Shown here: positions 16,067-64,000 of the stretch, piece after piece
Position numbering within the stretch: the stretch's first letter is position 1
Layout: each line of letters opens with the position of its first letter
Assembly: GCA_030141605.1 (NCBI GenBank)
Contig: JAQGDQ010000169.1
Location: 310,001-374,000 of the forward strand
Origin: Tubiluchus corallicola
Lineage: Eukaryota > Animalia > Priapulida
DNA: 64,000 bases
Direction of reading: 5' to 3'
Made by a program: the position numbers and the translations under genes
Notes under the pieces: model-generated
The model's input: the letters and a program-made list of their open reading frames with translations, nothing else
The model's database searches: none
Told to the model about the DNA's origin: nothing

Positions 16067-16121
<55 letters not shown>

Positions 16122-16536
16122 GTGTGTCTCTCTCTCTTTCTTTCTCTTCCTGTCTGATCTCAAAAGATTAGCACTAAAACTTAGATGGGTTTTGGTCCTA
16201 CCACAAACATCTAGTTGCCTGCAAATGGACTGACGAGAGTCGACCTTTCAAAGCTTAAAATGACACTCAATGCTAAAGGGCAATGCGTTACAAAATCGGG
16301 TTTGTGGCTATTTGCATGTTAATGCACTCTAATGCGTCTATGGCCTTTACTAGTGTACATTCCTTACTGCTTTTAGCCATGCATGTTTGAGACATTAGCT
16401 CGAGGCTTTCATTTTAGCGTGCTATGCTAGCTACTAGCTACATCTCCCTTCAAATAATGATAATGACGATGACAAGGACGAGGATGATTATAACTTTTTG
16501 TTTTGGTTCTGATGATAGTAAATAAAATTCTTTCTT

Positions 16537-16577
<41 letters not shown>

Positions 16578-19500: not shown

Positions 19501-22500
19501 GAATGGTGCAAGACAGGCATTTTCTACACATTGCTGAAAGTAAGGTGAACAAAAGCGAAGCATATCTGCAGTCACTGCTAGTTTTTCCCCATCCATTTGT
19601 GGATTTCAAGACGTTTGAGGGAGATATCCAGTTGTTTTTCTGCTACTATGATATCTGTAAGTACATAAATATCCACATATTTGTGTTGGACATTTTTGTT
19701 TTTTTGGGGAGGGGGGAGAGTTAGGTGTAATATTTTTATATATATTAGAAGCAGCAATCAAGTTGCGATCTGCATTGGTTCTTGTTTTATGATTTACGTT
19801 TTATTCATGCAAAAAATTAGATAAGTCTTATTACGAACGTAATAATATAATATAATATAATATAATATAATATAATATAATATAATATATTATATTATAT
19901 TATATTATATTATATAATATAATATAATATAATATAATATAATATAATATAATATAATATAATATAATATAATATAATATAATATAATATAATATAATAT
20001 AATATAATATAATATAATATAATATAATATAATATAATATAATATAATATAATATAATATAATATAATATAATATAATATAATATAATATAATATAATAT
20101 AATATAATATAATATAATATAATATAATATAATATAATATAATATATCTATCTATCTATCTATCTATACTATATATGTATAGTATATGTCTATAAATATA
20201 TATGTGTATTATATGTCTATTTTTTTCATTTTCGTATTTCTAGATCAGAAGTTGTTAGGTTTCCGAGTTCTAGTGGATGAACACGGTTTTTCAACTGTTA
20301 GGCAGCTGGGCTTCTATGACAACGGCATCCCAGTAATGAGAGAAGGGAAATTTACCAGCAGTTTTTCTTGTCTTGATTACCCTGTAACCGAACCTATGTT
20401 TACTACCCTCTACAAGAACTGCAGTCAGCCTCTAACAGGACAATACGTCAGCATTCTCATTTACGGACGGAGTGATCTGTTAAAATTATGTGAAGTAAAA
20501 GTATACGGGAAAAGTAAGTGCAAGTTTAAATTAGGCCAGAGTGTGCGATTAGAGTCTGATCTCACTTTTTGTGCCAGTTTTACACTAAATAAATGAAGAA
20601 ACATTTTAAAAATTGTGAAAATATTTTACATTATTGCACATAAAAAACGACGCTGTGAGTTCTTGGGCTATGTTTCTGTATCGCGGCCTTGACCTGAGGT
20701 TTCCTAATTCATAGCTTTGAACGCACAATGTACAATATACTGATATGATATTCGTCTTTGTGTCATGTTACACTAATATTACGTTAGCAAGCTCGCAGCT
20801 TTTCAAATTTCTTGTTTTACGAGTTTGCTCTGGGGGAAAGTGCTTAATAATCTGTTTCATCATAAAAGATGTTATCAAGTGTCAATACAGTATTCTTTGA
20901 TTGTATTCCAAAATGCAATTACGCCCAGTCTTAATAAAACATAAAGTTAAGTACAGTTCTCCTGGAAATGAGCAAGTTCAAAGCTTATTAGTTTTCAGAG
21001 TAAATCATCGTCATAGTCTATGAGTAATATCGCGTCATTTATGTCAGGGATTGTTCAGTCTGACAGTTTGATTACTTGTCAGAGGCAATGTGATTGTTCT
21101 GTTTCGTTCCATAATCACTTCCGGCTAGAAACTCGGCCCAGCCAACGCACGCCAGAAAATATTTCACCACTGTTATTAAGTCTGGCAAAGCTGCAGTTCA
21201 CTTGACTTTATAACGGTGTAATATTATTCTGTTTCATGTTTGCAGAGAAGTGTGGTCAGCCACTCGGAATGGCTTCAGAAGAGATCTATGACTTTCAGTT
21301 ACGGTCTTCATCTTACTCCTCCGCAGAAAGATATTACATCAATGCAAGGTTGAACAGAGAATACGCATGGTGTGCACAAGCCAACGACACACGACCTTAT
21401 TTACAGGTTAGTTTTTCATGGAGTCAACTGGCATTGGCCACAATGTTAACGACGATAATGAAAACAATTATTGTGATGCCGACAATTATTCTGAGGGCAA
21501 CAACCACAGCAGTTATGATAGTGATTTCACTGGCGTCATACACAGATGATCATTTTAAGCATTTCACAAGATTCTAGTAAAGGTTATTATTTCCTCGCTA
21601 AAGATGAAATTCTAAACATCCAGAGAGGGCTTGAATTTTTCACATCAAAACTTCAATAAAATTAGTTTTGCGATTTTCTGACTGTCAGCCAGAGTGCTTT
21701 TCCATTTCTAATTTCATATCTGCGTAACAGCAGTGGGTGTTATCCATGACTGATGTGCTGCACAATGCGACCAGTGGGAATTATTCCATTACGTGGCTTC
21801 TCACGATTAAATTTCTCGGTTTTGAATCTAACGAGATTTTGTGCGTTTTAGGCTGATTTGCTTCACAACACGACCATAACGGGCATCATTACACAAGGCC
21901 TGCCACGAATCAACAGAAACACGTTTGTAACCCTGTTTAAACTTGGCTTCAGCATCGACGGTTCTGACTGGTTCTACGAGGAAAGTCCTATTGGGAAGCC
22001 AAAAGTATGCTTAGATTAATTAATGGATGAGTAAGATTAAAAATAACTCTAGGAATCACTAGAGAGCCTAAACATGACCTTATGCTTGGCTTCACTTTTC
22101 TGAATTTTTAACCCATCTGTAAGGAAGAAACTCTAGTAACTCTAAAAGTGTGTTTGGATTGATTAATTGATTAACTGGTAACTTCTTAATAGATACAGTA
22201 GGCAAGTAAAAAAATAGTAATGATGATGATGATGAGTTGCTGGTGATAATAACAACAGTAGTTTCATTTTGTGATTTAAGATCTACACTTGCGAAGAGTG
22301 CAAAGCTCTGAAAAGAATCCGCAAAAACCAAGAAGTTATAAACGACGTTCCTGTCCGGTACAACATGTTGCAGCCAGTAAAAGCTCGCTACGTAAGAATT
22401 TCTATAGAAGCCTATGAACAACAACCATGCTTGCGTTTAGAAGTGTTAGGATGCCGAAGCAATGGTTAGTAATTGTTATTACTTCATGCAATATTATGGT

Positions 22501-25500
22501 TAACCCGATGTACAGGAGGTGCGCGAAGGGCCAAGTTTCAGAATTAAAAATCATTATGCTATTGTTGCATCATTTTACTGTTGTTGCGGGAAAAACATTT
22601 CATCAATCAGATGTAGTAGATAAAACAATAATATAGGTATGGCTAATAGTTTATATTTAAATACCCAATACGTCGCATTTATACTCTGTCAAATTTTAAA
22701 TCATCTGTACTGTATTACATTTAAATGTTGTTTGTTAAAGGAAAATACTTTATGCCACATTTGAATGCTTTGTGCCACGTATAAATAGTCTATGTTGCCT
22801 TCGAGTTAAAATTTACAATTAAGCAGTAAATTCGACAAACACTATGAGGCCAGTCTGCATAAATACGTTAACATCTAACACGGTTGATACTGTTTTAGAA
22901 AACTGCAATTACGTCTTAACAGAAGAAGGTTCAATCAAGTCTCCTCAATATCCACTATATTATGGCCAACAAAAGAACTGCACGTGGACGATAGCGCCAC
23001 CTGATGGCAAAAACGTGCAGGTTGATTTCGTGACTTTTGATATTGCAACGCCCGAATCGCTATGGAAAGGTGGGACTTGCCAGGATCTGTTATCAATATT
23101 CTTCAACCACAAAGGTGGGTCTATGAAGGAGCTAGTACGCACTGGAAATGGAGAAATATTCCCAAAAAAGATCATATCAGACGGCGGCATGATGATTCAC
23201 CTGCATAGTTGCTTTCGTTACAGCATAAGCAGGTTCCAGGGATTTTATCTTAATTACACATTTGTAGGTAAGTTTTCTTTGGAAAATGTAAACCCTGTCA
23301 GCTACTTTGTGAAATTATGAAAAGGATTATATTACCATAACAGTGTAAAGCTCACTAGACCGATCAATATTCCGAGATAAAGCTAGAGGTCTCAGGTGTT
23401 TGCGGTCTCATCGAAGTTTTTTTGGTGTCACTGGTCTAATCAGTGTAATAATCGTCGTCGTCATCAACAACATCATCGTCACCGCGATCATCATCATTGT
23501 TATCATCATCATCATCATCATCATCATCATAATCACCATCATCATCATCATCATCACTATCATCATCGTCATCTTCGCTGTCATCATCTTCTTCGTCCTC
23601 ATTGTCATCTTTGTTGTCGTTGTTGTCACCTTCATAATCAGTCTTTAAAACTTAAAACCACCATAAAAACTCTGCGTCACAAACTTGTAATAAGTGGCTG
23701 TAAATAGTAATCTTGATAATATTACACCTTCAGTACATGCTGATAATTTTCTGAATTTTTTTTATTCTCACTGCGTCCAAGTTGTGTCCACGGTGTCCAG
23801 ATTTGGTGCCAAGGTGTAGGAGTGTCTGAATATGGACTCAGTCTTTTATGTGCAATTCATCCAGTACTCAAATTGCAGTCTATTTATGTTGATGCTTGTG
23901 ACGAGTCCAAAACCTACCTTATTATCAATGACAATTTCTTTAGCATGAGATACTGGCCTGGCAGAGATACCTCAGTCGTATTTAACTATGCATACATCCT
24001 CATTCAAAACGATAAATCACCCGTCTATTTATTAACCATGTCTATATAATAAACAGATTTATTATGCTCAAGCCGGGACGATTTGGTTATTTACCTATTG
24101 ACCTCACCTTTACCAATGTATACACTAAGCTCAGTTTTGTTCAGCTAAAAATTCGAGCTATAATCTTGGCTCCCTCTCTAGTCTGAATTGCGCATTAGGA
24201 TTTCAAAATACATCAAAAAACGCCAAATTGGTTCAACTTGGTAACCGTGACCTTTGACTTCTGCTGAACCAAAAATATGACCGAAATTGGTTCAGTGATT
24301 GCAAACGTGATGTCATCTAGGCGAGGGATTAATTTGACAGCTAAAGTTCTTGTCTGTCTTTGTATCAGTTAAGTTTTATTTGTAGATTGCCCTGGCTGTG
24401 GCATGGGGTATCAATCGTGTGGAGATGGTTTTGACTGCCGAAGTTCTTGTGCTGTCATTGCATCAGTCAACTACCCTCTGCCGTACGAAAGCAATCACCG
24501 CTGTCGCTGGTATATCAAAGTTGAACCACGCCGCTATATCAGCCTAGAGGTACTTCACTTTGATGTGGAAGGAGAAGATGGCTGCTTGACCGACTTTGTT
24601 GAACTTTATGACGGCGAAGTAAACAAAGACAACCTGATAGGCCGTTACTGTAATACACAGAAACCAGAGAGAGTCATCTATTCTAGTTGGAACGAGCTTG
24701 TAATTGAATTCTCAGCGGACAGTTGGGGAACTGCTAGAGGATTTCTGTTTACATACACTGCTGAAGAATACCAGTTTGAATATGGTCTGAGTAATCTACA
24801 CGTGTCTGGTTAGTATACATTTCAAAATCAAGATCATATTTGTTGGTGTGGGTGAACAGCAATTGGTGTGCAAACGTAGGTAAAGATTTTTCCTGTATTT
24901 TGGACAAACTCCCCTATAGACCTTAACATATAGTGAGACTTTTTATTCTTTGACTTAGCAACGGGAGTGTAGTTTGATGCAGCATAAAGCTAAGCGATAG
25001 AGTTAAGATGTTGAACGTGCCTAATGTGTTTTGTGAAAGTTTGAAGGAAAGGTAAAACAGTTTAAAGATTTTTATTTTAGTATTTCTTTTGCTTTCGTAC
25101 AGATTCGTTAACTATACTTATCATAATCCGAATTTTATCAAATTTTCAGGTATTCCTTTTTGTCCAAACGGATGGGAATACTTTGAAGAGAACTGCTACC
25201 ATTTGATGATTCACCCAAAGCCGCTGACTTGGTACTATGCAGAGGAGGAATGTGTTCGACTTGGGGGTCATTTAGTCAGCATCCTCAACAGGAAAGAGAT
25301 GTCCTTTGTACATTTTCTGTTAACTAATGTGTGGAGCCTGGAAAAGGGGACTATGATATACATAGGCGAGTAGTTTGGCTATTATGTAATATTTGATGGA
25401 CAAATCTTCTTGCAGTTCTTTCTATTCCTTTTTTCACTGCACACTTATTTAATGCGATTTTGTGGACTTTGATAATGAAAGTTTTATATACGTGTTGACT

Positions 25501-27153
25501 ATATACTATTATTTCATTACATCAAAATCTTGTTTTTATTACACATCTGATCTTGACATAAAGCTAAATTTTCTTTTTGATCGGTAGTTATAAAGCTATA
25601 GATACACGTTAGTAAGGCTGCAATGTCTGCTACCAATTAGTTTATAAAGAATGCTTATGATGATTTTCATGTTTCCTAATGGGTAACTTATAAACAATTT
25701 GTAACCCTAGACACACTGCTTATCTAATTAATAATGAAGTGTAGTGCATAAATCTCCAATTATTCGAGCTGCAAAATGGAAACACATGAAAGCTCTTTTG
25801 CGTCTCAGCAACCGTTTGTGTGCAAAAGTCACGCTAACTGGAAGTTTCTCTCAGGTCTCACGGACGAAGCGGTGGAGGGCAAGTTTAGGTGGAGTGACAC
25901 AAATCCATTTAGCTACACTGATTGGTGTGAAGGACGAGTGGGCGTGAGAGACAAACAACAACCCAATGGCGGCCAGTTTGAAGATTGTACAGCTTCGCTG
26001 CTACACAGCAGACATTTAACAAGCACTTGGCATGACGTGCCATGCTCTCTTAATACAATCACACATTACATTTGCAAAGCAAAAGCAACAGACCACAGTA
26101 AGTAATAGTAAGCGAACTAATTTCTGAAGTTAATATTTGAGGTAGTTTAATAGTGTCGTTGCTTTTCATTTCAACGATTATAAGTTCAGCTGTTCGATCA
26201 CATATAAGAATTTAGTCGAATTAATAAAGGGCTAATAATGCAGTTGAAATGTATTACCATACATTTAATTTTTTATTTTAGAGGCAATAACACTAGGAAT
26301 TCATGAACAACAGGACATATCAAGAATCAGTTCACCTGAGAATTGTGTTTCTGATCGTTTTTTCACTTGTAGCAATGGAGAATGTGTTTCTTTGTTATAC
26401 TTGTGCGATGGTAAACGCGACTGCAGAGACGGCAGCGACGAATCACACTGTGGTATATAGTATTGGTATTTTGGTATATAGTCATTTACGAAAAGTGGAG
26501 TCGGAGAGATATGGACAGTGAAGTGTATTGAAATGCAAAGTATGTTAAAATCTGGAGTGGAGGCGAGAAGATGCAGATGAGGCTTCGAAAGAATTGGAAA
26601 TTGATTGAAACTGCTTGGTATTGGCCGACATGGAATGGGTTAAAATATTACTAGTACAATGGATGTGTGGAGTAATTTAATTGGAGAGGAAATGGTTGGA
26701 GTTTATTAAATGTCAGTGAATGTGTGCAGTTCAATGAGTAGATCGAGAATGAAGTGGCACGAAATGAAGAAGTGTCGTGTGAAGTGTATGGGAGAGAAGA
26801 GTGCAAGTTGGCTAAGTTAAATGTAAAACAACATAGCATACAATTGAATTAAAAGGCAATCATCGTTTAGTGCCCAGATCGACAAAGCGACTGGTCAACT
26901 CGACCAGAAAAGTTTACCAAAAATGTCATATGGCGCGTTCAGACGTAGCGATTTCTCCCGTAATTTGTTTGCATCTCTCCGATAAGATGTGACCAGTTCT
27001 AACATTTTACATGCGTTATTTTACGTGAGATATCCATTCATTAACAAAAAAGCCTTTCAACTCGTTTAATTGTGAGATTTTTTCGAACCCACTGTTTCAA
27101 CGCGCTATATTATTTTATCTTTCTAAACCTATTTTGAATAGTAATCATCGTCA

Positions 27154-27226
<73 letters not shown>

Positions 27227-30200
27227 TTCTTCTTCTTCTTCTTCATCATCATCGTAACAAAATTAAGTTAGTTTCAGCCTGTCCACAAATCAGATAACAC
27301 CCTTTTTATGCATGATAACATTATGTTTCAAAAACGTCTTCGTCCAGGATTCTATAAAATGGTCGATTTCAGGTTGATGGTCTTAAATTAAGTAAACAGT
27401 CACACAGCGATCGTTTTGCTTTTTGGTCAACGATTTTTTTTGGTTGACTTTCAGTTGCTCAAAACAAAACCAGTTACCTATAAATGATATTTTACACAGA
27501 TTTAGTGTAGCACTCCTGTATTTGCTATAGGTGAGGAATGTGCAGAAGATAGCTTTACTTGTGCAAATGGTCAGTGTGTGTCCATTTCTAAATATTGTGA
27601 TTATGTTCCTGATTGCGAAGATCAGTCAGACGAAGTGGACTGTGGTTAGTATTTCTTGAGAATTTATTGACATAATTGCAAAGCAAAAACACAGAGAAAA
27701 ACCATTCCATTGCATCTGTTTTCTTATGCTAATGCTTCTGATGCATGTGGTTAAGTTAGAACAAGTTTTGCAAGGCGAGACTGCTGATGTGTTAGTATTC
27801 TGTGTAATGAAGAGTGAGTAACAAATAACACAAAAGGAAAAGAAATGGAAAAAGAAAGAAAGCGAACTGTTGCAGTACTTTTCTACCAACAGATTTGTGA
27901 CTGCATGTGGAAGTAAAGCAGGGGTTTTCCTAGTAACTCTTCTTTGAAATTAGCTTATTGTTTTTTGCCCTGTGACGATGGCACTTATTTTGATATTTTA
28001 GTTCATTCACTGTGCACAGCGGAAGAATTTACCTGTAGAAATGGACAATGTATTCCTTTATCGAGCATTTGCGATTTGATACCAGACTGTACTGACGGCA
28101 GTGACGAGGAATTATGTGCAGGTAGTACTTCTCAACTTTTGTAATCAGGATCCCGAAACTGGCCCCGAATTAATCCAGTTGAAGAAATATAATGGGTGGT
28201 TATGCTTTTCAAAAAAGGTTAAAAATATAACTAACTTTTATTTCTTATTCGACCCACATCACAATTTTAAAACATTATACATGTAATTGCATCATACAAA
28301 CAGATGAGAGCTGGGAGACCCACACATGGCAGTCCTACTGCCCATATATAAGACATCATAAGATTCACATGATTTTGGAGTCTTATATCATTATGTATAT
28401 ATTCCAATCGCTGTGCTATTAGTGATTGTTAACAGGTCATTGCAAAGAAAACACGACATTCCCGTGCTATGATGGAACATGCATACCAGCGTTACGTCGG
28501 TGTGACGGATATATTGACTGTCCAGGAGTGTTTCAAGAGGATGAACCAGCTGACTGTAGTAAGTCGCTTGAAAGTTTTTTCACTACTATGTAGGTTTCTT
28601 CATCAGATGCCACAGGAACACCTGGTGACGCAAGGGTGAATGGTTGGTGCCAATTTAATTGATTTTCAAAACTAGTTAAAAGAAATTGCAATTTGTTAAT
28701 CTGAATTATTAAAGCTTTTTTTTAAAAATTGCAAGATGTATATTTAATAACTGAAATCAAAGAACACCACATCATATTGTCGATAGTCATATAGTTTTGA
28801 TTTTGAGCTACCAAGAGCGCTGAAACACTTTAAGCTGGAACTACAGCAAGCACCAACTCATCAATAAAGCTTCAGCAATTATCTCATATACCATTTTGGT
28901 TGATCGTACGCTACACAAACAATTACAAATGTGCATAATCGTATAATCACAACAATCAACTTTAAGTGCTTTCTCTAAATACTTCGGTTTTAGCAAACGC
29001 CAAAAAAGTTGGTCGGTTGACGTTGTCTGTACGCAGCTTCAATTGTCTTTTTTCAGTTGACCATACGCACATGGTTTCTGCAAACTTCCATAACATTTAT
29101 CGTGCTGTTTTTATGAAGCCTTACTTTCCTTCTGATTTCAGTATCCGAATTCACTGACGTTTACGCTATTGAAGAAAACAAGCAAATGTGTAAAGACGTG
29201 TTTCACTCCTGTGACGAAGTTGTGCATTCGCTTGGGGAATTGACTTCCGGATCATATCTCATCGATCCAGATGGTGATAACGATCATTATGAGCCATTTC
29301 ATGTTTATTGCGACGTAAGAGAATTGAGTAATGGAAGCATCGAAGTGTGGACTGTTATCCATCACGACAGTGAGCAGAGGACGTATGTACGCTCACATAA
29401 CAATGGCCCTGGTGGTTACGTCCGCAATGTTTCTTACGTTGACCTGAGCATGAAACAGATCCGAGAGATTGTAGATAACAGCATCTATTGTCGACAGTTC
29501 ATCAAATGGGAATGTCAAGGTGCTGCGTTCATGTTCAGTAAGAGACCATTTTCTTGGTGGACATCCCCAGATTACATGCGCCATTACTACTGGGGTGATG
29601 CTAAACGTCCTTTTACTTGTGGGTGTTACCCTAACTGTACTGATCCCACACTACCGTGTAACTGTGATCAAAATCAACGATTTGTTTGGCAGGAAGATTC
29701 AGGTTATATAGAAGAGAAGTACAGTTTACCTATCACTCAACTGGCTTTGGGAGATACGTCTGGTACTGGTGAGGCTGGGTATTATACACTCGGTGCGCTC
29801 GAGTGCAGAGGTTCTAAGGGTAAGAGAATGTTAACATATTTGTCTGTTTTCAGTCATGCTAACTTTATTACCAGTGCTTGAAACAGCTTTTCTCAATTAA
29901 CTTCTCTAAAAAAATAACAGTGTTTATAAACCGTTATTTTGTAATATTTAGAAAATTTTACTTTTTTACGTAACGCTGTTGAGTTTGCGTAACATTGAAA
30001 CCCGTAAACTGACGCGAGGAAAAATCCTGTGTCATTTCTCAACACAGAATGTTGGATCGACATCCCATGTCGAGGACACAATATGAAGAGTACAACAGCA
30101 AAAGCCCTCGCGTTTTTTGGTATGGAGGGTTCTCGTTATAGTCTCATTTAGGTCTATATAGATATTAGCCTTTGAAAGTCGTATTTTTTAGCACAACCAA

Positions 30201-33200
30201 AAAGCAAAAAGAACTGCCTGCAGACTACAAATTGGCTTCGTTGTGAGAATGGTCATTATGTACATAAGAATGTTACATGCTTGTATGGTTTTGATCAACA
30301 TGGATACAACATAGGATGCACTGACGTATCTCACTTACGGGATTGCGGTACGTTGGTTTGAAAATTTAGTTGGTCATTGTCGCTGAAATGTGGAATGCAG
30401 GATTGTGAAACCATCTTTAATGTCTTGATATTTAAGTAATCTTCAGGGGTAGGAAGGCAATACGTGTAATTTCGAGAGGCAGGAAGACAATTTGTGTAAT
30501 TTACAGAGGCAAGAAGACAATACGTGTAATTTACAGAGGCAAGAAAGCAATACCAGTAATACCAGTACAAATAGATAGTCGCTTGAATGCTAAAAGTACT
30601 TTTTAAAGAATGGTACTTGCAAAGAGGCAGAGCAGAGAAATGCTAGCCTGATATTATTTGAAATTGGACTCCTACCAGCCCTTTACGACAACCTTCAATG
30701 TTAATAGCAACAAGACCATTAACTTGTTTTGTTTCTTTCATTTGGTAGTCTACACTAAACTACCTGCATACAGACTACCAGTACAGACTAAAAACACTAC
30801 TAAGGGTTTGATAAGTTGTAAAGGAATGTATTTTAAATTTATTAAAACAGTCGGAAACAAAATTCATACCCAATTTGTCACCAACCAAATACTCTTTTTT
30901 ACAAGAAAGTTTTATTTTTATGCGTGTGCTTGTTTGTGTCTATTCTATCTTTTTTCACTTTGCTTCTTTGAGTTTCTCTCAAAGTCTCACTAAATTTTAT
31001 GTTTTCAGGAACATTTTCTTGCCCGGACGAGTATCTAAAATGTCCCGAGTCATACTGCATACCTGTCCATAATGTCTGTGATGGAAGGTGGGACTGTCCT
31101 AATGGACATGACGAGATCAATTGTAACGAAACATTTACCTGTCCTGGACTATATAAATGTCACGAACAGACTTACTGTGTACCAATGTTTAAAATTTGTG
31201 ACGGCATCAGAGACTGCCCACTGGGAGATGATGAATTTTCGTGTGGTATGTAATCCTTTGCTTTTTGTTACTTATGTGGAGGTTTTGCATTCTCAACATT
31301 TTTTTGTAATTCTGCCACAGAAACACTTCTATATTTAAAGTTTTTTCTTGTACATTAGATGTAAGAGGTAATGCTAGCGATGAACAAATACAGACTGTAA
31401 TTTTAATTAAGGAAGTTATATGGGCTCTAGAACGTAATTGTTTTGATTTTTTGACAGGAATGAGTTGTACGCCATATTAACACATCTTACTTTCACTTAA
31501 TTGTATATATTCGCATTGCTTGCTAATCTTGTTAATTAATGTTTTTTTGCTTGTTGATCTGTTTGTTTATTTGATGTGATTGTACCACGAGTACGAATAA
31601 AAATATTATAGTTTTGTATTAACTTGTTAATTCATTTTTGTTGATACACATAAAATTGCAAATAAACGTCTAGAGCTACTCTTGTTTCTAGACCTATTTT
31701 TGATAATTTAATGGCTTAGAGCCTCAGTTGTAGGCTATAGTGTTGTGTAGTAGTGCAACTTATCATGGTTGCTAAAACAGTACTTCAGGAAAAAAGATAC
31801 CTGAAAGTAAAAATCATTTTAGTTGTCTTAACTGCATGCATGACAATGTTTCGTTTCTCACCGGTAGACTTGGAGTGTCCAGCAGAATGCTCGTGCTCTC
31901 TTCTTTCTGTAGCTTGCAGAAGCAGGGATTTGGTAACTCTTCCATCAAATGTGACCTTACTAGCCAGAAAATTGTAAGTTTTGCCTGTTTTAGTTTTGTA
32001 ATTTGTAAATGTTGTCTTTTAACTTTGGTGTATAAGGGTTTGTGGGTTACGTTATGATGTAGAAATTATGCGCCATATTGTATGGTTGTTTATTGAAGAC
32101 GAAAAGTGTAAATTTATAGACAGAGTAGCAATGTAAGGAATGTTCATGAACATCCGCGCCAGTGTCGCGCGCACTGTTTCTAGCCGACCAATCAAAGAAT
32201 AACATCCGACATCTTGTCGAAAATCATCTATTTGCTTGCTGTCGCTGGATGTGAAAACTCACCCTCTCGCCAACCACTACTAAAGTAGGATGGTAATTTT
32301 TGTGTGAACTTTAGGTTTAGGCACTTTTAACATTGCAGTGTTTTTTCAGTAATGTGAAATATTTATATAATATTATAATGTACCACTGTATATTGTTGAA
32401 ACTGCTTTTGGTATAATTTTGTAATGTATTATAGATTGCAAACAATGCTTTATTATGTTTGTAATCATAGATGCAAGTCAATACTGTGATTAGTACAGTC
32501 ATGTATTTGGTGGGACGGTATTTGGGTGTGCCCCACCTTTTTTGCTTTGCTATATTGATTGAATTATCATTTTAATAAATGACCTCATTTTATCAACTAA
32601 TTTCATTCTTGGTGCTTATGCGGAAAACTAGCCAGGTTCAACCAATTTTACCTTTAGATCGGTTTTATGAACATTAGCTTACAAAAATAATATTTATCGG
32701 TGCACTATAGCATCTTTAAGTATTTATTTTATTTCAGAGACTTGAGCCATAACCGCATTAATGTCAGTATTATCGACCTACACGATTTCGTTTATCTGGG
32801 CGAGCTGTAAGTCATTTTTTGGTTTCTTCAGTGTGAGATTATTGTTAGTTTTTAAATACTGGCGGGTAGGGGTTATGTAACTATATTCATTTGAAGTACG
32901 TAACATTTGATTTTGGTGATATTATGTTTAAAGCGTAGGACATAGAGGCAGAGTTAAGAAGCGCCAGGTCTGGCAAGTAAGCAGATTAGTGATCGTGGGA
33001 AAATTGCTTTTAGATTTTAACTTAGCATATTGCCTTTGTATATTTTTTAATGGTAGGGAGGATGAAAGCGAATCTAAACGCGACTAACTCGACTAACTGT
33101 CGGTGCAGTGTCTTACCTGAGATGATTATGTGTGTTAATAAGAAATTTCTCATTTTATAAAAAAATCCAACGCGCCTTTTTCTCGTCGTGCTGCAAACTC

Positions 33201-36200
33201 TAGAGCTGCTTTCCCTTGACCTACCCCAGTGGAAACAAATTGTCGTCGCACGCTACATTCTGTGTGCGTGTACAAACGTTGAAGATCAAGTGGTACTCAA
33301 AATAGACAAATATTTTCCTTTACTTTCAGGGATTTATCATATAACAGTATAGTGGAAATCCCTTCGAAAAAGTTTCACTATCTTCGAAATTTATTTTTAC
33401 TGTGAGTATATTCGAAAATGTTCTAATTAGGAATTACTTTGTAGGTTTCCGTGTAACTGTTCATGTTAGCGATTGGGAATTTTGATTCATATGAGTTTGA
33501 TATAATGTAAATTGTAAAAAATATTAATGAAACTATTTTGTAACTCTCTGTTGAGTTCTTAAAGTATTAATAATGTTTGTGTTTTATTGAATTTTAACAG
33601 AGATCTTCGCTGGAATAAATTGGTAGTTCTCCATGAAGGTGCATTTGATGGATTAATACGGCTAAAAATTCTGTAAGTGGAAGATTTAACGAGAAATTTT
33701 TTTTATTACTATTTTTTAAAATCTACTGCCTTTGCTTTAATTGTTTGGTTTCTTATCTTTTAGATTTCTGCTAAAGTTTACGGGTAAGCAAAAGCGTGTC
33801 TGCCAAATTTTCTATGCTACTAACTAAATAATTGATAACGCTTTGTTTTGCAGTTTATTAAGTGGAAATCCTAAGCTTGCTGACATTGAACCTGGCGCTT
33901 TTGAGGGCTTACATCATCTGAGCGATTTGTAAGTAGTTGTTTACCACACCAAATTGATAGCGTATGGCCGTATTCTTGTCAGTAATATCATAGGCTAATT
34001 AATATTTTTTATATCGCCATTACACATTTTCAATATGTGGTACGAACAATTTTTAAAAAATTGAAACCAATTTCAGTATTTTATAAGTATCCAGTATAAC
34101 AACATTCGTCAGTTAAATATAAATGGTTTAATGTGGACTTCATACTGGCTGTTTAGAACTTTATGCTGACTCAGCCTGACTAATTTGAATAAATAAGTTT
34201 AAGCAGTTTAAGCTGCAAGGCTTCCACACGTTGTGAAGAAGTTTGTGCTCACTAATTTGAATAAGCTGATTTGACTTACACAGACTTCTAAATCTTGAGT
34301 GGTAGTCTGTGTTCACTAATTCGTATAAGCTGATTTATGGTACAAAGATTTCTGGAAATATTATGTAAATGTCTATGTTCACTGATTTGAATAAACTGAT
34401 TAGGCTATATGGACTTCTACAGGGTTGTGCAGGAGTACCTCGGAGAAGAACGTTTTAAAGTCATGCAAATCTTTTCGGGCCCTTGCCCCACTGGCGGATA
34501 AGGCCCTTAGGCTCTTAGCGGGTCCTGGGCACAACAGTTAGGGTCTGGGAGAGCACTGTGGAGGTGTTTAGTTAGTTCGAAACTTTTGAATGCCTATTTT
34601 CAATTACATAAAATATGATTTCTGGACTGCAAAGTTCACAACCTTTTCATTTTATTACGTTTTTATGATACTACATTAACAACTTTGAACAAACATATCA
34701 AGCTTAACAATTGTCATGCAGAAACAATTTTTATAATTTTGGTCTTTTTGTGACCTTTGTTCTTAGAACCTGAAGTACCTCTTAAATTTAAATTTTATTG
34801 ATGTTCAGGCATTTAGCAGCTCATCATCTACGCTTATTAAAAACAAGCACATTCCGTGGATTAGAAGACCTGCAAAGCCTGTAAGTTTATTATCAGCAAG
34901 AAATTAAATATAGGCTTAATAGCTTAAATCTGTCAAATAATCTGTCATTTGTGATGGTAATGATATAAATTAAATGACATTTCCCAAAACAATGTTTATA
35001 AGCTGCCTTATTTGTTGGTTATTAAAATCTTAATGTCAATATTATTATTAATGTTAATGAAAATCCACAATTAACTGAATTCTGATAACAAACTTGAAAG
35101 GAAGAAATTCACAAGGTAGGTTAAACTTGGTCAAAATAAAAAAAATAATCTAATTACAGCTAGAATCACTCTAGTGTAATCTTACATCGGAAATGCTGAA
35201 TTCGGTTGGCTCCTATAAGAGATGAACTTTGAACTGCCTTAATCACTAAGGAAAACAGTGGCCTAGTCATATAAGGTATCTGTTTTGTAAGCAGATGTTT
35301 CTGGTTCAAATCCAAGGTGTATTCAAACTTTTTCACATTTCTTGTCTTTTTAGTTTGATATCAAAATTTAATTAATTGTGGGTTTGTACCATCATCCTTT
35401 TTCAGTTCTGAATTCTGCTCTGTCAGTTTTTTGCTCTGTGCGTTAATCTGTCATTAGGTCGAATTTCATCTAATATTTAATGATTAATCCAACTTTACAC
35501 TATATTCTTCTGCGATCTTTGTCACACATTTTCTTACAAAACATGTGGCAACTCCTTCAAGTTAACATGTTTGACTCACTCCGACTTACTATTATTTTAG
35601 GAACTTGTCTGGAAACAACATTGGCGTCATTGAGAAAGGAGCTCTGAGTGAACTGAAAAATGTCAAACACTTGTAAGTACAAAATGGTAAAAATTTACCT
35701 TTCAGTGGTTTTTCACTTAAAAAGCATTTTATTCCTCAGTTTAAGCATGTGAGGTATGCCTAGCTAGAAATAGGCTAGAATCTGCTTTGCAATATAAAAC
35801 TATAATATCAAAGGTAGTAAATTAGCAGTATTATTTTAGAAATAACTGTGTTTCGACGTATAAAAGCTCATTCGTTTTTTTTGCTTTTCAGAGATATTAG
35901 AGGAAATGATATCAGTGATTTTTCTGAAGACATTTTTCGAAGTTTAGCTTCGCTGGAGTATTTGTAAGTCGACACTGGATCGAAAACTAAAAATTTAACA
36001 CATTGCCAGTGCTTGGATTTTATCATAATCAATGAAAAGCCCAACGAGAATTACATCAGTTATCATTAAGATTAAAATGAATACCAATTGTCTCTATCTG
36101 TGGACTTTATTAAAAGTTAGATGTTTTCTGATGTGCAGTTCTAGTTATCAAAATCGTCTAGAATTATTTATATTGTGATACCAGTTCAAATTAGTGCCTT

Positions 36201-38565
36201 TACATTCGTGTAGGATGATAAATGTACAAATTACTTTGAATTTGTACAGTTTCTTGGGACGCATGTAAAATTTAACTATGTTGTTCTTAAAAAACATCAG
36301 TAGTACTTAACAGAATATATTTCTAAAACAACTCACCCTGATACCATGATATTTCTATGATATTCTAAAGTAATATAGATGGTGCCAAAAGGAGGCATCT
36401 TGTTGTTTATTTGGCGTATCTTTGTGTATTTGCTGAACATTTTAAAAATTGTTATCGTTTATATTAGGTTCCAGTTTTGTAATCCTATGCCTGCCATTTT
36501 ATTATTTCTGTACTTACTTTCTTTGATTTTCAGCTCTTTTTCGCCTTTTGTTTTACAGATACAGTGACTCATTCAAATTCTGCTGTTTAGCAAAATCTCA
36601 CATCAGCTTTGACAACTGTCTTCCTCAAGCGGATGAATTCTCATCTTGTGAAGATCTAATGAGCAATTATACGTTACGTCTTTCTCTTTGGCTACTTGGC
36701 GCCATCGCTTTCTTTGGAAATTTCTTTGTTGTAGTTTGGAGGTTCAAAACTAAGGAAGCCAACAAGATCAGTTCCTTATTGATTTTGAGTTTGGGGTGTG
36801 CGGACTTCCTTATGGGAATATACCTTCTGATAATCGCTGGTGTTGATTTGTACTACAGGGGGCGCTACATAGCGTATGCGGATCAATGGAAAAGAAGTGC
36901 GTTGTGTAAAATTGCTGGTTTTATATCAACGTTGGCAACAGAAGTCGGTGTATTTACATTGACTTTGATAACAGTTGACAGACTAATATGTCTAGCTTTC
37001 CAATTCCGAATAAGACGGTTCAACACTAAACAAGTGTATATTTTGCTTTCATTGGCATGGACCATTGCCTGTGTTTTGGCCATAATTCCATTTTTAATCA
37101 CTAGTTATTTTCATGGCCAGTTCTTTGCAAGATCCGGTGTTTGTCTCGCACTGCATATCACTGCAGAGAAGCATCCTGGTTGGGAGTATGCTGTCGCTGT
37201 GTTCTTGTGTATCAATTTTCTAGCATTTATATTTATAATTGTATCGTATGTGTATATGTATATTACTATTCGCCAGACTACAAGAGCTGTACAGAGAATC
37301 TCTATACAGAAATCAAAAGAATTGACTGTTGGCCGACAGATGGCGGTGATTGTATTAACGAACTTTTGCTGCTGGATGCCAATCATCATCATGGGTTTAT
37401 TGGCTCTAAGTGGTGCTGTAGTCATACCAGGTAGGCTAATTGGTTTACGTATTCCTTCCTATTCATATTGATGCCTGGGTCTGTTAAGATTCTTTTAAGA
37501 TTTTTGAATACATTTCGGGAAACTGCAAGACGGAATCTAGATCTCAAAAGCAAGGCCTTTTCGACAAGCTGTTTGTGCGCGAGCCGCATGACCAGAGACT
37601 GTGTCAGTATCGATGTTACTCTTCAAAGATAAGCCACTAAACAGGTGGAAGCAAGAGTTTTGGATGTACAGGTATACACGTTCTCCCTCTACGAGCGTAA
37701 CAGCCAAAGTTTACAAGTGATATTGTCAAAAGCGAGTATCGAACCCAGGTGCCCATTCGTCACTCACTTAAAGTGCGAACATAAGCGATTTCAATCATTC
37801 TTTGTGAAACTAGTCCAATTTTGATATTAGAAATGACCTGCTGGGTTGAAGATTCAAACCATCTTCCGCAGTCACTGTGTTTCAAAGCGACAAGTGTATT
37901 TCACAAAACTGATTTATTTTCCATCAAATTTTCCTGTTTTTGAAGAAAAGTGGTAAAAACCACATTCCGGGACTAACTTTAGAGTGATATCTTTCTTAGC
38001 AATCTGATTACTATAAATTCCAGTCTTCCACACATGTGCTATTAGTCCATAGTTATCCAGCTAATTGTATGATGTGCTGACTAGTTATCTTATTAATTGG
38101 ATGAAATCTTATTAAGAATGTTTTATAGGAGAAGTATATGCATGGACTGCGGTATTTGTCTTGCCTCTAAACTCTGCTACGAATCCAATATTATACACCA
38201 TATCATCTGTAGACAAGGATACAGTGCGACGGACTCTCTTCTGTGGAGCTGGTCATAAGTCGTCAAAATTTCACAGCACTATTGGCAATGGTATGTACCA
38301 AATAATAATAGTTTGTACCAAACAGTATCAGCAACAGTTCACACATATTTCTTCTTCGTTTTTCTTTATTCTAGTTTCTTTTCTGCAATTCTCCGCAGGT
38401 TTTAGCTTTTTTTCTTGATCGCTTTTGGAAATCGACAATGAAAAATATTTAATTTTTGCGTGGTAATAGATTGATAAAATATTTCACTTTTTAAAAACAT
38501 GGTTAAACATAAAAACCTACTGCATCTGCTTTCTTGCTACCTTTTACACACGTTCTTACTCTCTC

Positions 38566-38863: not shown

Positions 38864-41800
38864 CATCCATCCATCCATCCATCCATCCATCCATCCATCC
38901 ATCCATCCATCCATCCATCCATCCATCCATCCATCCATCCATCCATCTATCTATCTTTCTCTTCTATTTCTCTCTTCCTGCCCTGTCTATTTATTCGTCT
39001 ATCCTTTAACTAAACAAAAACGTACAAAATTGACCAAGTTGGAAGAAGGATGAGGAATACACTGCTTTTGTGAATTGCAACCCACAGTTCCCAGCTATTT
39101 GACTAGATTAGATTGTCTTAGAATAACTCAATGCATGACATAAATTAGACGTTTTCATCGTAGACCACAACCTTTGTGTGCCACGTGTTGGTTAGCTAAG
39201 TAGGGTCGTCAGCATGCCAAGTATTAGTTTAATAGAGCTTTGGCCATTGTGTTAGAATTATCATTTTCATCATGCTTAAAGTTTTAGTTAGTTTGCATGA
39301 CATGTGTTTTGCACAGAGGCATTCTACATGAAGAGGCTTAATTCTAGTCCCCTTCCTTCTCCACGACGATTTTCAACAGCTAGCACACATCTAAAAGGAA
39401 ATGGAATCTACAATGGTAAGATGAGAATTTGTATTTGTTGCATGTTACTTGTTCGTTATTTTATTATTTTTGCACGAATTGTTGCTTTCGTACTTTCCAA
39501 ACTAACTTGTGTATTATAAATGTTTTTGCTTAATACAGCGTGGTTGAAATACAGTGACACATTTTCGTTGTGAAGCATCTATTAAGTCTTTCAGGGCAAG
39601 AAATATATCTTTTGGTAGATAAGTTCTAAAAATTTTCTGAGGTATGTTGGATAAAAAGATTTATTTTCTGTACTTTTTAATTTAGTAGATTTCAGTTGAA
39701 AGTAAGGCAATTAACTTTTTCATGAACGAAAATTTGACTTAAATGAAAACTTATTATTTTACGATGAAGATACTGATCTGCTATCGTAAGTTTGCTAAGT
39801 AACATGTTACGATTACTCCTAGACTTGCAAACTCAGTGTGCGAATTGATGAGTGCTAAGTAACTCCGTATATTTTGCAAAGAAAGTTCACCTAGTCATGT
39901 AATATGTTCTCCCTTTGTGCAAGTGTCTCCTATCTGCGGATTCTGGACATTTGTATGATTCTAAAATACTACTGACACCTTACACTTTCAAGTAAGATGC
40001 CCCAGCCCTTTTCAAGACATGGAAGTATGCTTGAGGGCTATGAACACACTTTAATGGGTTCTTTGTGGTACGAAGTTTTAGCGCAGCTTTAAAGAAAACA
40101 AATATCTTTCATAACGGTATATTAATAATTAGAAGCAAATGTTTATTGGTGTATTTACTTTTACAAGTGCAGAAACATTTTTCATAAACATAAGCCTTTT
40201 TTCAGTAGGCACTGCAGAAAATAATTAGTAACACAAAACAGCAAACTCAAATCAATGAAATGTGACAAATGTGTTCTTGGTATTTCGTTGTTCTAAATGT
40301 GATGCTTTGTGTCATTAGTGTCTGCATTGTCTACTGAAAAGGTAGATGACTTGTAAATAGACTAATAAACATTTGTTTCTAATTACCACATATGAAAGAT
40401 GTTTGTTTTCTTCAAAACTCTAGCACGTAAGCTTGGCAAAAATAAATATCATTAATTCTTTTTATTATTATTGTTTATAATTTCTTGTGATGTACAAAAA
40501 ACTGTTATATCCGCTATCAATTTCTTCCTTTTACGTTACTGCCTTCTTCTTACAACTCCGCTAAGTGGAAAAAATGTTTTGTTTCATCTCTTCTTTTCAA
40601 ATTGCTATAATATTTGTATTGCCAACATTTACAGCATAAAAGCAATACTTCAAATCAAGCAATACTTAATACTCACAATACAAATTGTGACAACGATGTT
40701 GTAAATAATATGTTACAAACACCATCGTGGAGTATCAAATATGACACAAATGTTCAAATAATATGACATTAATTGATAACCCAAGAGCAGATTGATAGTT
40801 CCGCACCTTTTTGTAATTATATATAAATTTATTGTTTATTTTGAAATGCTATTCTCGCTTTTTTAAAAGATGCCGCGTGCATTTGATTTTACAGTGCCTT
40901 ATTTTTCACGTTTTGCAAAATACGATTCCACAATGTGCTAGTAAAATTTTTCTTCATCTCCTTTCTAGGTGCCTCATTTTATGAACGGCAAGCTAAATGT
41001 AACAATTACTCCATGGCCGAAGTAGGTGCAGTGGCCGATTCTGGTGGTTCAGCGCCTAGGAAGAAAGTGGTTTTCAATCATCGTGCTCCTCATGGTTACA
41101 TGTCACTCGCTCAGTATCTCAAAGAAACGAGACCTTTAGACATTGAAGAAATACGCTACATCACTAAAGTCATTTGCGAAGTTCTGCATCAAGTTCATAA
41201 AGCCGGATATGCACTAGGACAACTGGAACCAGACACTGTGTTCCTATCAAGACAGGTACATTGTAGAGCGCTAACTTCGAAGAAAAGTTCCTGTAAAAAA
41301 TAGTGCCTATACAATAATGTTGACTTTTTTATATACATGTACGCTCTGAAACTTGTATGCATTGGAAATGGTTATCATTGCTAACATTAAACATGCTTTG
41401 TTGCGCCAGGCTTTGAAAAATAAGAGACAAGTTCTGCAGGACACAAACTCAAGGCAACAGTTGAACTATCATACTAGCCTTTCTCGAATATACCCACTAA
41501 ACTTGTCCCCATTCTTCTAGTCTATTCCACTCATGGCCGAGTCAGTGGTTTGATTTATGCGGGCTGCTAGTCAATGGTTATAGGATGCTTATGGTTATTT
41601 GCGCGCTACATCTTTATCTGTATTTTTAAAAGTGTAAGTGTTGCTGGAAGTATCTGTGAATAGATCTTCTGGTATGTTGTTGTCTCATATATGAGGGATG
41701 GTAAATAAATGACGTCTCTGCCTCTGTCCATTTTAAAAAAGCTCTTATGTGGGCTGACCAATAGACATGTGAGTGTGCAGGTGAAAATCACGTAATGGTG

Positions 41801-42786
41801 CATGTGACGGGTAAGAAAAGGCTTAATCTTCCTGTATGGGTAGAACAAACTGGAGCAGAGTTGGAAGCAGATCTAGAACTAATTTTTATCAAGAGAGACG
41901 GAGAACATTAATTTATATAAACTTGTCCCCATTCTTCTAGTCTGTTCCACTCATGGCCGAGTCAGTGGTTTGATTTATGCGGGCTGCTAAAGTCAATGGT
42001 TATAGGATGCTTATGGTTATTTGCGCGCTACATCTTTATCTGTATTTTTAAAAGTGTAAGTGTTGCTGGAAGTATCTGTGAATAGATCTTCTGGTATGTT
42101 GTTGTCTCATATATGAGGGATGGTAAATAAATGACGTCTCTGCCTCTGTCCATTTTAAAAAAGCTCTTATGTGGGCTGACCAATAGACATGTGAGTGTGC
42201 AGGTGAAAATCACGTAATGGTGCATGTGACGGGTAAGAAAAGGCTTAATCTTCCTGTATGGGTAGAACAAACTGGAGCAGAGTTGGAAGCAGATCTAGAA
42301 CTAATTTTTATCAAGAGAGACGGAGAACATTAATTTTATAATATTAACTATGTTTGTGTGTTCTTGGGATTTTTCCCCCAAACATTTTCTTTTTGCAAGT
42401 ACAGAAAACCTGCTCACGGATTCTATGCAATAGTCAGACACATTTACAAAGCAGCCTGTCAGTCGTATTCTTGTACTTGTATTCAGTGGAAGAATGATCT
42501 CTTGAATAGTCTAGCTGCCCGTAGGCCTATACTATTTTCAAGCTTTAAGTTTCCACAATATTTAATCTAATAATTATACCTTAAATTTCAGAATGGGGAA
42601 CTTCATGTTTACGTGCCAGATCTGAACGCCTATAAAACAGGGATCTATCCTGCTCAAAAACACAACGACGACACAGCACAGGACATGGAAGATCTGGCTA
42701 ACATTGTTAAACGAATGTTGAGGGCTTATAAACTGCAGAATAGATTACATAGATCCGTACCAGATGTGAACGATTCCCGCTTATGA
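8783..42786 (+). CDS. GRL101-like LDLa/LRR G-protein-coupled receptor (LGR type C) with a giant lectin/CUB mosaic ectodomain, about 2747 aa, 36 coding exons
   Basis: Phase-consistent exons: 8783-8843, 11612-11812, 13560-13666, 14925-15243, 16630-16998, 17723-18154, 18431-18657, 18972-19656, 20244-20513, 21246-21406, 21852-22004, 22281-22464, 22899-23267, 24386-24808, 25150-25365, 25855-26097, 26282-26452, 27531-27644, 28002-28121, 28436-28558, 29142-29819, 30192-30347, 31009-31245, 31868-31973, 32738-32806, 33330-33401, 33601-33672, 33854-33928, 34809-34880, 35601-35672, 35892-35963, 36559-37430, 38129-38290, 39317-39415, 40969-41255, 42592-42786. Total 8244 nt, divisible by 3. The LDLa-LRR-hinge (FKFCC...[10 protein letters not shown])-7TM layout is the GRL101/RXFP class. 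The first exon is the least certain. Confidence 0.85.
11612..15243 (+). CDS. Receptor exons 2-4: Caspr/neurexin-IV-type fibrinogen-like module 1
   Basis: [68 protein letters not shown] match the Caspr fibrinogen-like region as I recognise it; GT-AG boundaries. Confidence 0.85.
16630..18154 (+). CDS. Receptor exons 5-6: two CUB domains
   Basis: FSSPGF..YP..W.I..LTF..YDI..GFQA and CG.ITS..YP..W.I..F.DFDI..C..G.FC..GRGF.LTY; each lies on one phase 1-1 exon. Confidence 0.8.
17040..17352 (-). mobile_element. Non-autonomous repeat family 1 with internal tRNA-like segment (copy 1)
   Basis: The reverse complement contains GGTGGCTTAGTGG..GATTCAAATCC (A/B-box-like) and shares blocks with 35056-35390 (GCCAACC.AATTCAGCATTT, AACTTTTTCACA). 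Confidence 0.6.
18431..20513 (+). CDS. Receptor exons 7-9: F-type lectin (fucolectin/FTP) domain interrupted by an apextrin C-terminal (ApeC) domain
   Basis: Exon 7 [30 protein letters not shown]; exon 8 [51 protein letters not shown]; exon 9 [22 protein letters not shown]. Confidence 0.85.
19843..20146. repeat. (AATAT)n microsatellite with an internal inverted (ATATT)n tract
   Basis: About 300 bp; orientation flips at about 19887-19914. Confidence 0.97.
21246..22464 (+). CDS. Receptor exons 10-12: discoidin / coagulation factor 5/8 type C domain
   Basis: [61 protein letters not shown]. Confidence 0.88.
22899..26097 (+). CDS. Receptor exons 13-16: two CUB domains and a C-type lectin domain
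   Basis: [15 protein letters not shown] and I.S.NYP.PY..N..C.W.I..FDVE..C..D.V..G.YC; CTL: CPNGW..F..CY..W..AE..C..GGHLVSI..YIGLTD..EG.F.WSD..QPNGG..EDC..WHDVPC..YICK. Confidence 0.9.
23455..23635. repeat. Degenerate (ATC)n repeat
   Basis: Direct reading; source of poly-H, poly-I and poly-M ORFs. Confidence 0.9.
26282..31245 (+). CDS. Receptor exons 17-23: four LDLa repeats, second Caspr-type fibrinogen-like module, three further LDLa repeats
   Basis: F.C.NG.C....CDG..DC.DGSDE..C repeats; single exon 29142-29819 has [27 protein letters not shown]; atypical LDLa C.YGFD..G..GC.D.SHL..C then CPGLYKC, as seen in GRL101-type receptors. Confidence 0.9.
27154..27250. repeat. (CAT)n(CTT)n microsatellite
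   Basis: Direct reading. Confidence 0.97.
30447..30546. repeat. 30-bp minisatellite, about 3 units
   Basis: GAGGCARGAAGACAATWYGTGTAATTTACA repeated. Confidence 0.85.
31868..35963 (+). CDS. Receptor exons 24-31: LRRNT and seven leucine-rich repeats
   Basis: CPAECSC..V.C; seven phase 2-2 exons of 69-75 nt, each encoding LxLxxNxI-type repeats (e.g. [22 protein letters not shown]). Confidence 0.92.
34179..34420. repeat. Degenerate minisatellite, about 4 units of 63-72 bp
   Basis: Core TGTTCACTAATTTGAATAAGCTGATT recurs near 34179, 34251, 34314 and 34381. Confidence 0.8.
35056..35390 (+). mobile_element. Non-autonomous repeat family 1 (copy 2), MITE-like with imperfect ~50-bp terminal inverted repeats
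   Basis: 35056-35108 is an imperfect reverse complement of 35337-35390; internal AGTGGCCTAG..GGTTCAAATCC at 35257-35313. Confidence 0.6.
36559..38290 (+). CDS. Receptor exons 32-33: hinge and rhodopsin-class 7TM domain
   Basis: [17 protein letters not shown] (TM1), L..ADFLMG.YL (TM2), DRL (DRY position), CCWMP (TM6), [13 protein letters not shown] (NPxxY). Confidence 0.97.
37560..37800 (-). mobile_element. tRNA-derived SINE-like family 2 (copy 1)
   Basis: Reverse complement CCTGGGTTCGATACTCGC..GTAAACTTTGGCTGTT..GTAGAGGGA..TGGCTTATCT is shared with 51822-52010. Confidence 0.55.
38558..38955. repeat. Compound (CT)n(CTGT)n(CCAT)n(CTAT)n microsatellite
   Basis: Direct reading. Confidence 0.98.
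39317..42786 (+). CDS. Receptor exons 34-36: cytoplasmic tail with a Ser-rich segment, degenerate protein-kinase-like C-lobe and C-terminal DSRL
   Basis: Phase-compatible GT-AG exons 39317-39415, 40969-41255, 42592-42786 (TGA at 42784-42786); AATAAA near 43273. Confidence 0.75.
41498..42340. repeat. Near-perfect ~420-bp tandem duplication in the last intron of the receptor gene
   Basis: 41498-41917 is repeated at 41918-42340 with very few differences (TCTATTCC vs TCTGTTCC; a 2-nt indel GCTAG vs GCTAAAG); the ORF track shows two identical 80-aa ORFs. Confidence 0.97.

Positions 42787-54978: not shown

Positions 54979-64000
<9,022 letters not shown>

Follow-up and report, generated by a model that had tools for sequence, protein, structure and literature searches.

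Rhodopsin-class G-protein-coupled receptors (GPCRs) usually end in short, unstructured tails. The locus examined here, in a window of 64,000 nucleotides from the priapulid Tubiluchus corallicola (GCA_030141605.1, contig JAQGDQ010000169.1, positions 310,001 to 374,000), raises the question of whether such a receptor can end in part of a protein kinase and, if so, what that part does. A first-pass annotation, made from the letters alone, had proposed that exons at 40969-41255 and 42592-42786 (all coordinates are those of the window) encode a degenerate kinase C-lobe fused to the cytoplasmic tail of a GPCR. Both exons lie where that annotation put them, with AG/GT ends and the translations quoted there. 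The tail contains, with strong support, a conserved, catalytically dead kinase-fold fragment of 105 residues that runs from the hinge to helix F.

The gene is that of a GRL101-like receptor, and its predicted exons span ~11.6 to 42.8 kb of the window. The exons of a large ectodomain (11605..35976, +) were recognized by Pfam on exon open reading frames and by collinearity with the tick protein XP_054927507 (2,592 amino acids [aa]), which follows the locus from 11.6 to 42.8 kb. Their units are fibrinogen-like, CUB (three), F5/8-type, ApeC, and C-type lectin domains, LDLa repeats, a second fibrinogen-like domain, and leucine-rich repeats (LRRs); no signal-peptide exon was found in this part (11605..35976). 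Collinear tblastn matches of Priapulus and tick proteins place the LDLa repeats and then the LRRs upstream of the seven-transmembrane (7TM) region, which is of the rhodopsin class and nearest those of leucine-rich-repeat GPCRs (LGRs), as in type C members of that group. The ectodomain is a very large mosaic that includes an apextrin C-terminal domain (11605-35976, +), and this mosaic, with its collinearity to the tick protein, suggests that carbohydrate or pattern recognition may operate upstream of the GPCR.

The hinge and TM1 to TM6 occupy one exon (36559..37430, +; 7tm_1, E = 7e-26; AG acceptor), and the next exon (38129..38290, +; AG/GT ends, in frame), which corresponds to Priapulus residues 981 to 1035, carries TM7 with its NPxxY and the first part of the tail. 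The 7TM exon best matches a GRL101-like protein of Priapulus caudatus (76% identity), followed by centipede and spider proteins (57 to 59%), and its identity to canonical GRL101 members is 44 to 51%; the 120 7TM matches listed are GRL101-like or unnamed 7TM receptors. The DRL, CWxP, and NPxxY motifs are intact, which makes coupling to G proteins plausible.

A maximum-likelihood tree of the 7TM region was built without an AU test from 58 of 123 rows, chosen for taxon spread, with rows of 230 or fewer aligned residues excluded. In this tree, the window receptor groups with that of Priapulus (support, 100/97) within an 18-row ecdysozoan clade (100/99), and a second clade (93/97) unites Lymnaea GRL101 with arthropod LGR5. 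The window receptor does not group with Lymnaea GRL101, as a canonical GRL101/LGR5 orthologue would, and Strigamia, Leptotrombidium, and Dinothrombium each have one gene in both clades. Since the clades are separate and some species have a gene in each, the window gene is, as placed by the tree, a paralogue of canonical GRL101. Judged by sequence, the receptor is a type C LGR that is GRL101-like yet not a GRL101 orthologue. It shares LDLa repeats, LRRs, and a rhodopsin-class 7TM region with GRL101 and arthropod LGR5 (kin of RXFP1/2). It differs from them in the far greater size of its ectodomain (CUB, ApeC, F5/8, lectin, and fibrinogen-like domains) and in its kinase-derived tail.

The exons at 36560-37430, 38129-38290, 39317-39415, 40969-41255, and 42592-42786 have canonical GT/AG junctions and form one open frame that closes with a TGA at 42784-42786, leaving 224 residues after NPxxY under the predicted splicing. 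The exon at 40969..41255 (+) encodes the end of a linker and, from 41085, a hinge-like PxGY, helix D, helix E, strand 6, a degenerate catalytic loop, and strand 7; the last exon (42592..42786, +) encodes strand 8, a degenerate DFG, strand 9, a short loop, helix F (to ~42735), and the stop. The whole kinase-derived module, delimited by identity and by fold matches, occupies 41085..42735 (+), 105 aa over one intron. A further candidate exon (39317..39415, +), with AG/GT ends and an open frame, would add a Ser/Pro/Arg-rich stretch of linker; it is 99 nucleotides (nt) long, and the frame is kept whether it is included or skipped. The Priapulus caudatus model runs directly from the 38290 exon to the 40969 exon, with Priapulus residue 1035 mapping to both 38292 and 40968. 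Neither a counterpart of 39317-39415 in that model nor a contig over it from the run guessed to be RNA (run X2) was found, and the exon is possibly alternative or unused. If alternatively spliced, it would alter the length of the linker and its possible phosphorylation sites.

Two junctions had been drawn around these tail exons, and they fared differently: 41255-42592 has contig support, but 39415-40969 has none, and the Priapulus model skips its upstream exon. The supporting contig (157 bases, from run X2, whose RNA status is a guess) covers 42589-42737 at ~95% identity, so it comes from a relative. Its 8-base loose end equals window 41245-41252 and differs from the intron bases before the acceptor; the contig shows junction 41255-42592 with a short overhang, at 11 bases under the 31-base bridging standard, where a given 8-mer would occur by chance at ~1/65,000. 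Several database fragments stop just past strand 7 or start just ahead of strand 8, and a long insertion separates these strands in the Araneus model. Because the fragment ends and the Araneus insertion coincide there, the intron between strands 7 and 8 appears to be conserved. The Araneus insertion (protein P0008) is itself of note, comprising ~375 residues with an RNase H, splitting the module at the intron position; it is probably an intronic retroelement caught by the gene model. Acidic low-complexity insertions of ~15 to 100 residues also lie between strands 7 and 8 in a subgroup of unnamed homologues (P0013, P0133 to P0136, P0138, P0140 to P0142, and P0153).

Structures were predicted on homologues (Priapulus and P0124) rather than on the spliced window protein. 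In the AlphaFold2 model of the Priapulus tail, made from a 13-row alignment, the first ~60 residues are of low confidence (linker pLDDT, 37 to 46) and the module is confident (mostly 82 to 95, with a dip to 58 before helix F). The module consists, in order, of a short helix, a long helix, paired strands, and a long final helix, which we take to be the hinge, helix D, helix E, strand 6, catalytic loop, strands 7 and 8, DFG position, strand 9, and helix F of a kinase, the short loop before helix F presumably standing where the activation segment belongs. When 48,161 chains were compared by VIA-align, all 50 matches listed were kinases, pseudokinases, or kinase-containing chains. The best match of the Priapulus model was Rad53 (Z = 10.5; rmsd, 3.3; 96 aligned), a second VIA-align comparison gave WNK1 (Z = 11.4; rmsd, 2.6; 93 aligned), and the fold matches span residues ~68 to 172 of the Priapulus-tail model. 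Foldseek returned nothing from the PDB at E ≤ 0.001 (best, 0.011), and the rows that it listed were all kinases. The top match in the ESM Atlas was a kinase cluster (0.96).

Sequence searches led to the same proteins. The best natural PDB match is the pseudokinase VRK3 (E = 0.002), with VRK1 lower down; the two entries ranked above it, designed coiled coils that matched in repeated weak stretches on helix F, were set aside. A profile of the tail, searched against 1.84 billion protein representatives, recovered 54 matches: 24 that include part of a 7TM region, 23 short fragments of 58 to 269 aa, 5 kinase-domain proteins (E = 1e-6 to 4e-4), and 2 unrelated proteins (a repeat protein and a helicase) that we attribute to chance. 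Profile-profile alignment to kinases gave a probability of 96% (reversed-alignment control, 0.2%) and an E value of 4.5e-9 that is optimistic in that the four kinases aligned were drawn from the same profile's matches; this alignment reproduced the mapping of the HRD loop, the DFG, and the helix-F Asp in the first-pass annotation. The helices (D to F), strands (6 to 9), and catalytic loop of a protein kinase-like fold are thus present by model, fold matches, and profile matches alike, and the kinase origin proposed at the outset holds, though of the searches for it VIA-align and the profiles matched kinases and Foldseek gave nothing at its threshold. No single kinase subfamily stands out as the donor of the module. 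Pfam assigned no family to the two tail exons and no kinase or KIND family to any of 13 aligned tail rows. A word-based homologue search with a single exon scored none of 79 candidates, a failure of sensitivity, because the Priapulus orthologue exists.

The description of the module as a C-lobe was right for the segment from the hinge to helix F but too generous beyond it. There is no N-lobe, the linker having no strands in either model, and helices G to I are also absent, a single helix F running to the C terminus in both. The distance from TM7 to the module is 42 to 100 residues in 27 of the 29 homologues measured, and after the motif that ends the module only 5 to 23 residues remain in the window protein and in the 11 homologues, of 13, in which the motif was found.

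As had been proposed, the module lacks the residues of an active kinase. Of the 41 family rows, none retains the HRD Arg (34 have Gly) and one, from a feather star, retains the catalytic Asp; the DFG Gly survives in 3 of 35 filled rows. The helix-E His is invariant across the 41 rows, and 29 of 34 filled rows have the helix-F Asp: scaffold residues are retained and catalytic residues are gone. The window protein has Gln at the position of the catalytic Asp and Thr at that of the Asn, and neither an N-lobe with a glycine-rich loop and lysine nor an HRD Asp with a DFG was found in the tail. Judging by its residues, the module can neither bind ATP nor phosphorylate in the usual manner.

The module is as conserved as the receptor that carries it. 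Between the window protein and Priapulus, identity is 75% in the module, also 75% in the 7TM region, and 35% in the linker; in comparisons with centipede, spider, and mite, it is 37 to 45% in the module and 55 to 59% in the 7TM region. The X2 contig differs from the window at seven sites, and of the six listed, five are synonymous and the sixth replaces Lys with Arg. Purifying selection on the module is strongly supported by comparisons of this kind.

A search of invertebrate GRL101-like homologues for the same tail found it in 14 of the 120 listed (E ≤ 3.4e-6), more than chance would give, and all 14 fall in the ecdysozoan clade. Within that clade, 17 of 18 rows carry the module, and the remaining row is a fragment that ends at TM7. 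Profile matches with names include proteins of tick, sea spider, gall mite, abalone, limpet, and scallop, and a related half-domain is present on receptors of Ptychodera, Antedon, and molluscs (profile-profile probability, 99%). A kinase-like tail is lacking in most canonical GRL101 receptors, so a receptor of this type can operate without one. In the available gene models, the tail is standard in the ecdysozoan receptor clade, with relatives in molluscs and deuterostomes, and the initial impression of an oddity on one rhodopsin-class receptor does not stand.

Several known systems resemble parts of this arrangement. KIND domains are used for protein binding, with a formin peptide sitting in the place of helix G, and retain helices E, F, H, and I, according to the accessible part of PMC3415841. 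Like the module, KIND is a derivative of the kinase C-lobe with no N-lobe or catalytic residues, but the module ends after helix F and has no counterpart of helices H and I. KIND occurs in cytoplasmic proteins and is not known from the tails of GPCRs, and it appeared neither in the Pfam scan results nor among the best 50 fold rows. By analogy, the module most likely works like KIND. GPCR-kinase fusions (GPCR-TKL/K and GPCR-TK) share with the window receptor a kinase-fold domain C-terminal to the 7TM region, but in the window receptor that domain is a dead fragment on a bilaterian LGR. Such fusions are known from oomycetes, amoebozoans, choanoflagellates, and sponges, with none functionally characterized, in the part of PMC12716839 available, and a 2025 survey recovered GPCR-tyrosine-kinases among animals only in sponges.

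Another resemblance is to GRL101 models of the acorn worms Saccoglossus, Glandiceps, and Ptychodera, which are likewise LGRs ending in a dead kinase-fold tail; Pkinase matches that tail at E = 2e-6 to 5e-5, short of the curated cut-off. Unlike the window module, the acorn-worm tail has both lobes, with 233 columns aligned to kinases, and belongs to the canonical GRL101 branch. This two-lobed pseudokinase tail (P0045, P0087, and P0099) is absent from those orthologues of echinoderms, molluscs, and insects that the tree includes.

A literature search, with supplements and most subscription journals outside its scope, returned no description of a kinase-like tail on GRL101-type receptors. In their accessible parts, PMC7357564 (Veenstra), which mentions chelicerate paralogues, PMC11521371, and PMC2396169 say nothing of such a tail. 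The arrangement is real and conserved and apparently undescribed as a variant, GPCR-kinase fusions and the C-lobe-only KIND being already known. Gene models of these receptors are already public, and that Pfam misses the module would explain why it was overlooked. A folded, kinase-derived module present from priapulids to arachnids would be an unrecognized signaling or regulatory element on a group related to the relaxin receptors; it extends fusions of GPCRs with kinase folds to bilaterians and suggests that the kinase-fold core from hinge to helix F may stand alone. With somewhat less than even confidence, we propose that these receptors form an undescribed, ancient bilaterian LGR subfamily, in which this minimal module is the most reduced state of a series from whole pseudokinase (acorn worms) to half-domain (ecdysozoans, molluscs, and feather stars) to loss, provides a second, G-protein-independent output or a gate, and is a smaller, independently evolved counterpart of KIND.

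As to function, we give even chances to the reading that the tail is a dead kinase-fold fragment on a predicted flexible linker, serving as a built-in docking module for a cytoplasmic partner. The ectodomain would activate the receptor and, as in other LGRs, G-protein signaling would follow; insulin-like ligands were proposed for GRL101 by Veenstra in the accessible part of 10.1101/2021.04.15.440029. With no helices G to I, helices E and F would have a bare face that could be open to a segment of the partner, much as the KIND of Spire takes a formin peptide at the site that helix G would occupy. Binding is the simplest reading because the module is noncatalytic yet under strong selection, and a scaffold role would fit both the conservation and the KIND precedent. 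The module may descend from a complete pseudokinase tail of the kind present on acorn-worm GRL101, although the profile match between the two is weak (probability, 5%; E = 0.007; three acorn-worm sequences only).

Docking of a separate partner has to be weighed against a role in cis, possible though rather unlikely, in which the module turns back on the receptor that bears it, at the cytoplasmic face, and gates access by G proteins or arrestins (autoinhibition or bias). No full-length stand-alone module was found among the 54 matches from the 1.84 billion representatives, and a linker of at least 42 residues has sufficient reach to fold back, but the variation in its length (42 to 100 residues) and its predicted disorder (residues 353 to 382) argue against such a role. 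A one-chain model of the 7TM region and tail reached a pTM of 0.72, above a rough estimate of ~0.64 for an unplaced module but under a rough estimate of ~0.78 for one firmly docked.

An improbable alternative to docking is self-association or trafficking, the module dimerizing or clustering receptors through faces bared by the loss of the N-lobe and helices G to I. Hydrophobic faces would, in the models, be exposed without the covering helices, and the end of helix F is conserved (Val, Lys, Met, Leu, and Tyr columns at ≥70%); against this, no positive evidence for self-association was obtained. A homodimer prediction for the P0124 module, made with no alignment, scored 0.04 relative to a mark of 0.32 and speaks neither for nor against it.

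It is more improbable again that the module is what is left, in decay, of an earlier fusion between receptor and pseudokinase and now does nothing past folding stably. Its truncation at both ends, the lack of a module in most canonical GRL101 receptors, and an identity to arthropods lower than that of the 7TM region could all be read as decay. Decay sits poorly, however, with the retention of the same borders in priapulids, centipede, and chelicerates, with a conservation between the window and Priapulus equal to that of the 7TM region, and with the mostly synonymous differences in the relative.

That the tail exons belong to a separate gene, the fusion being an artefact of gene models, is very hard to sustain. 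No contig of the RNA-guessed run X2 joins the 7TM exons to the tail exons, with pieces covered at 25910-26097 and 36998-37164, though such a lack of cover counts neither way, and many of the homologues are themselves predicted models. The fusion first proposed is nevertheless supported, since homologous proteins show the same join: independent models from Priapulus, centipede, spider, mite, tick, sea spider, and molluscs have the same fusion and borders, and the reading frame is open through canonical junctions. Residual nucleotide binding or catalysis, for instance with an N-lobe supplied in trans, is scarcely credible, for although 26 of 36 filled rows have an acidic residue (Asp or Glu) at the DFG Asp position and 18 of 41 have Asn at the final position of the catalytic loop, the HRD Arg and all but one catalytic Asp are gone from the 41 rows, there is no glycine-rich loop or lysine strand, and in the window protein Gln replaces the catalytic Asp and Thr the Asn.

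Within the intron dividing the module lies a near-perfect tandem duplication of ~420 bases (99%; window 41498-42341); no contig of the DNA run lies over most of it, and it could be of recent origin or an artefact of assembly. The product of the next gene (45527-47154, +), whose first exon is long, is likely secreted and carries a cuticlin/ZP-N domain (Pfam CUT_N, E = 4e-4). Farther downstream, exons of a major-facilitator transporter lie on the opposite strand (56647-60308, -; MFS_1, E = 3e-11), and this transporter presumably resembles a vesicular monoamine transporter.
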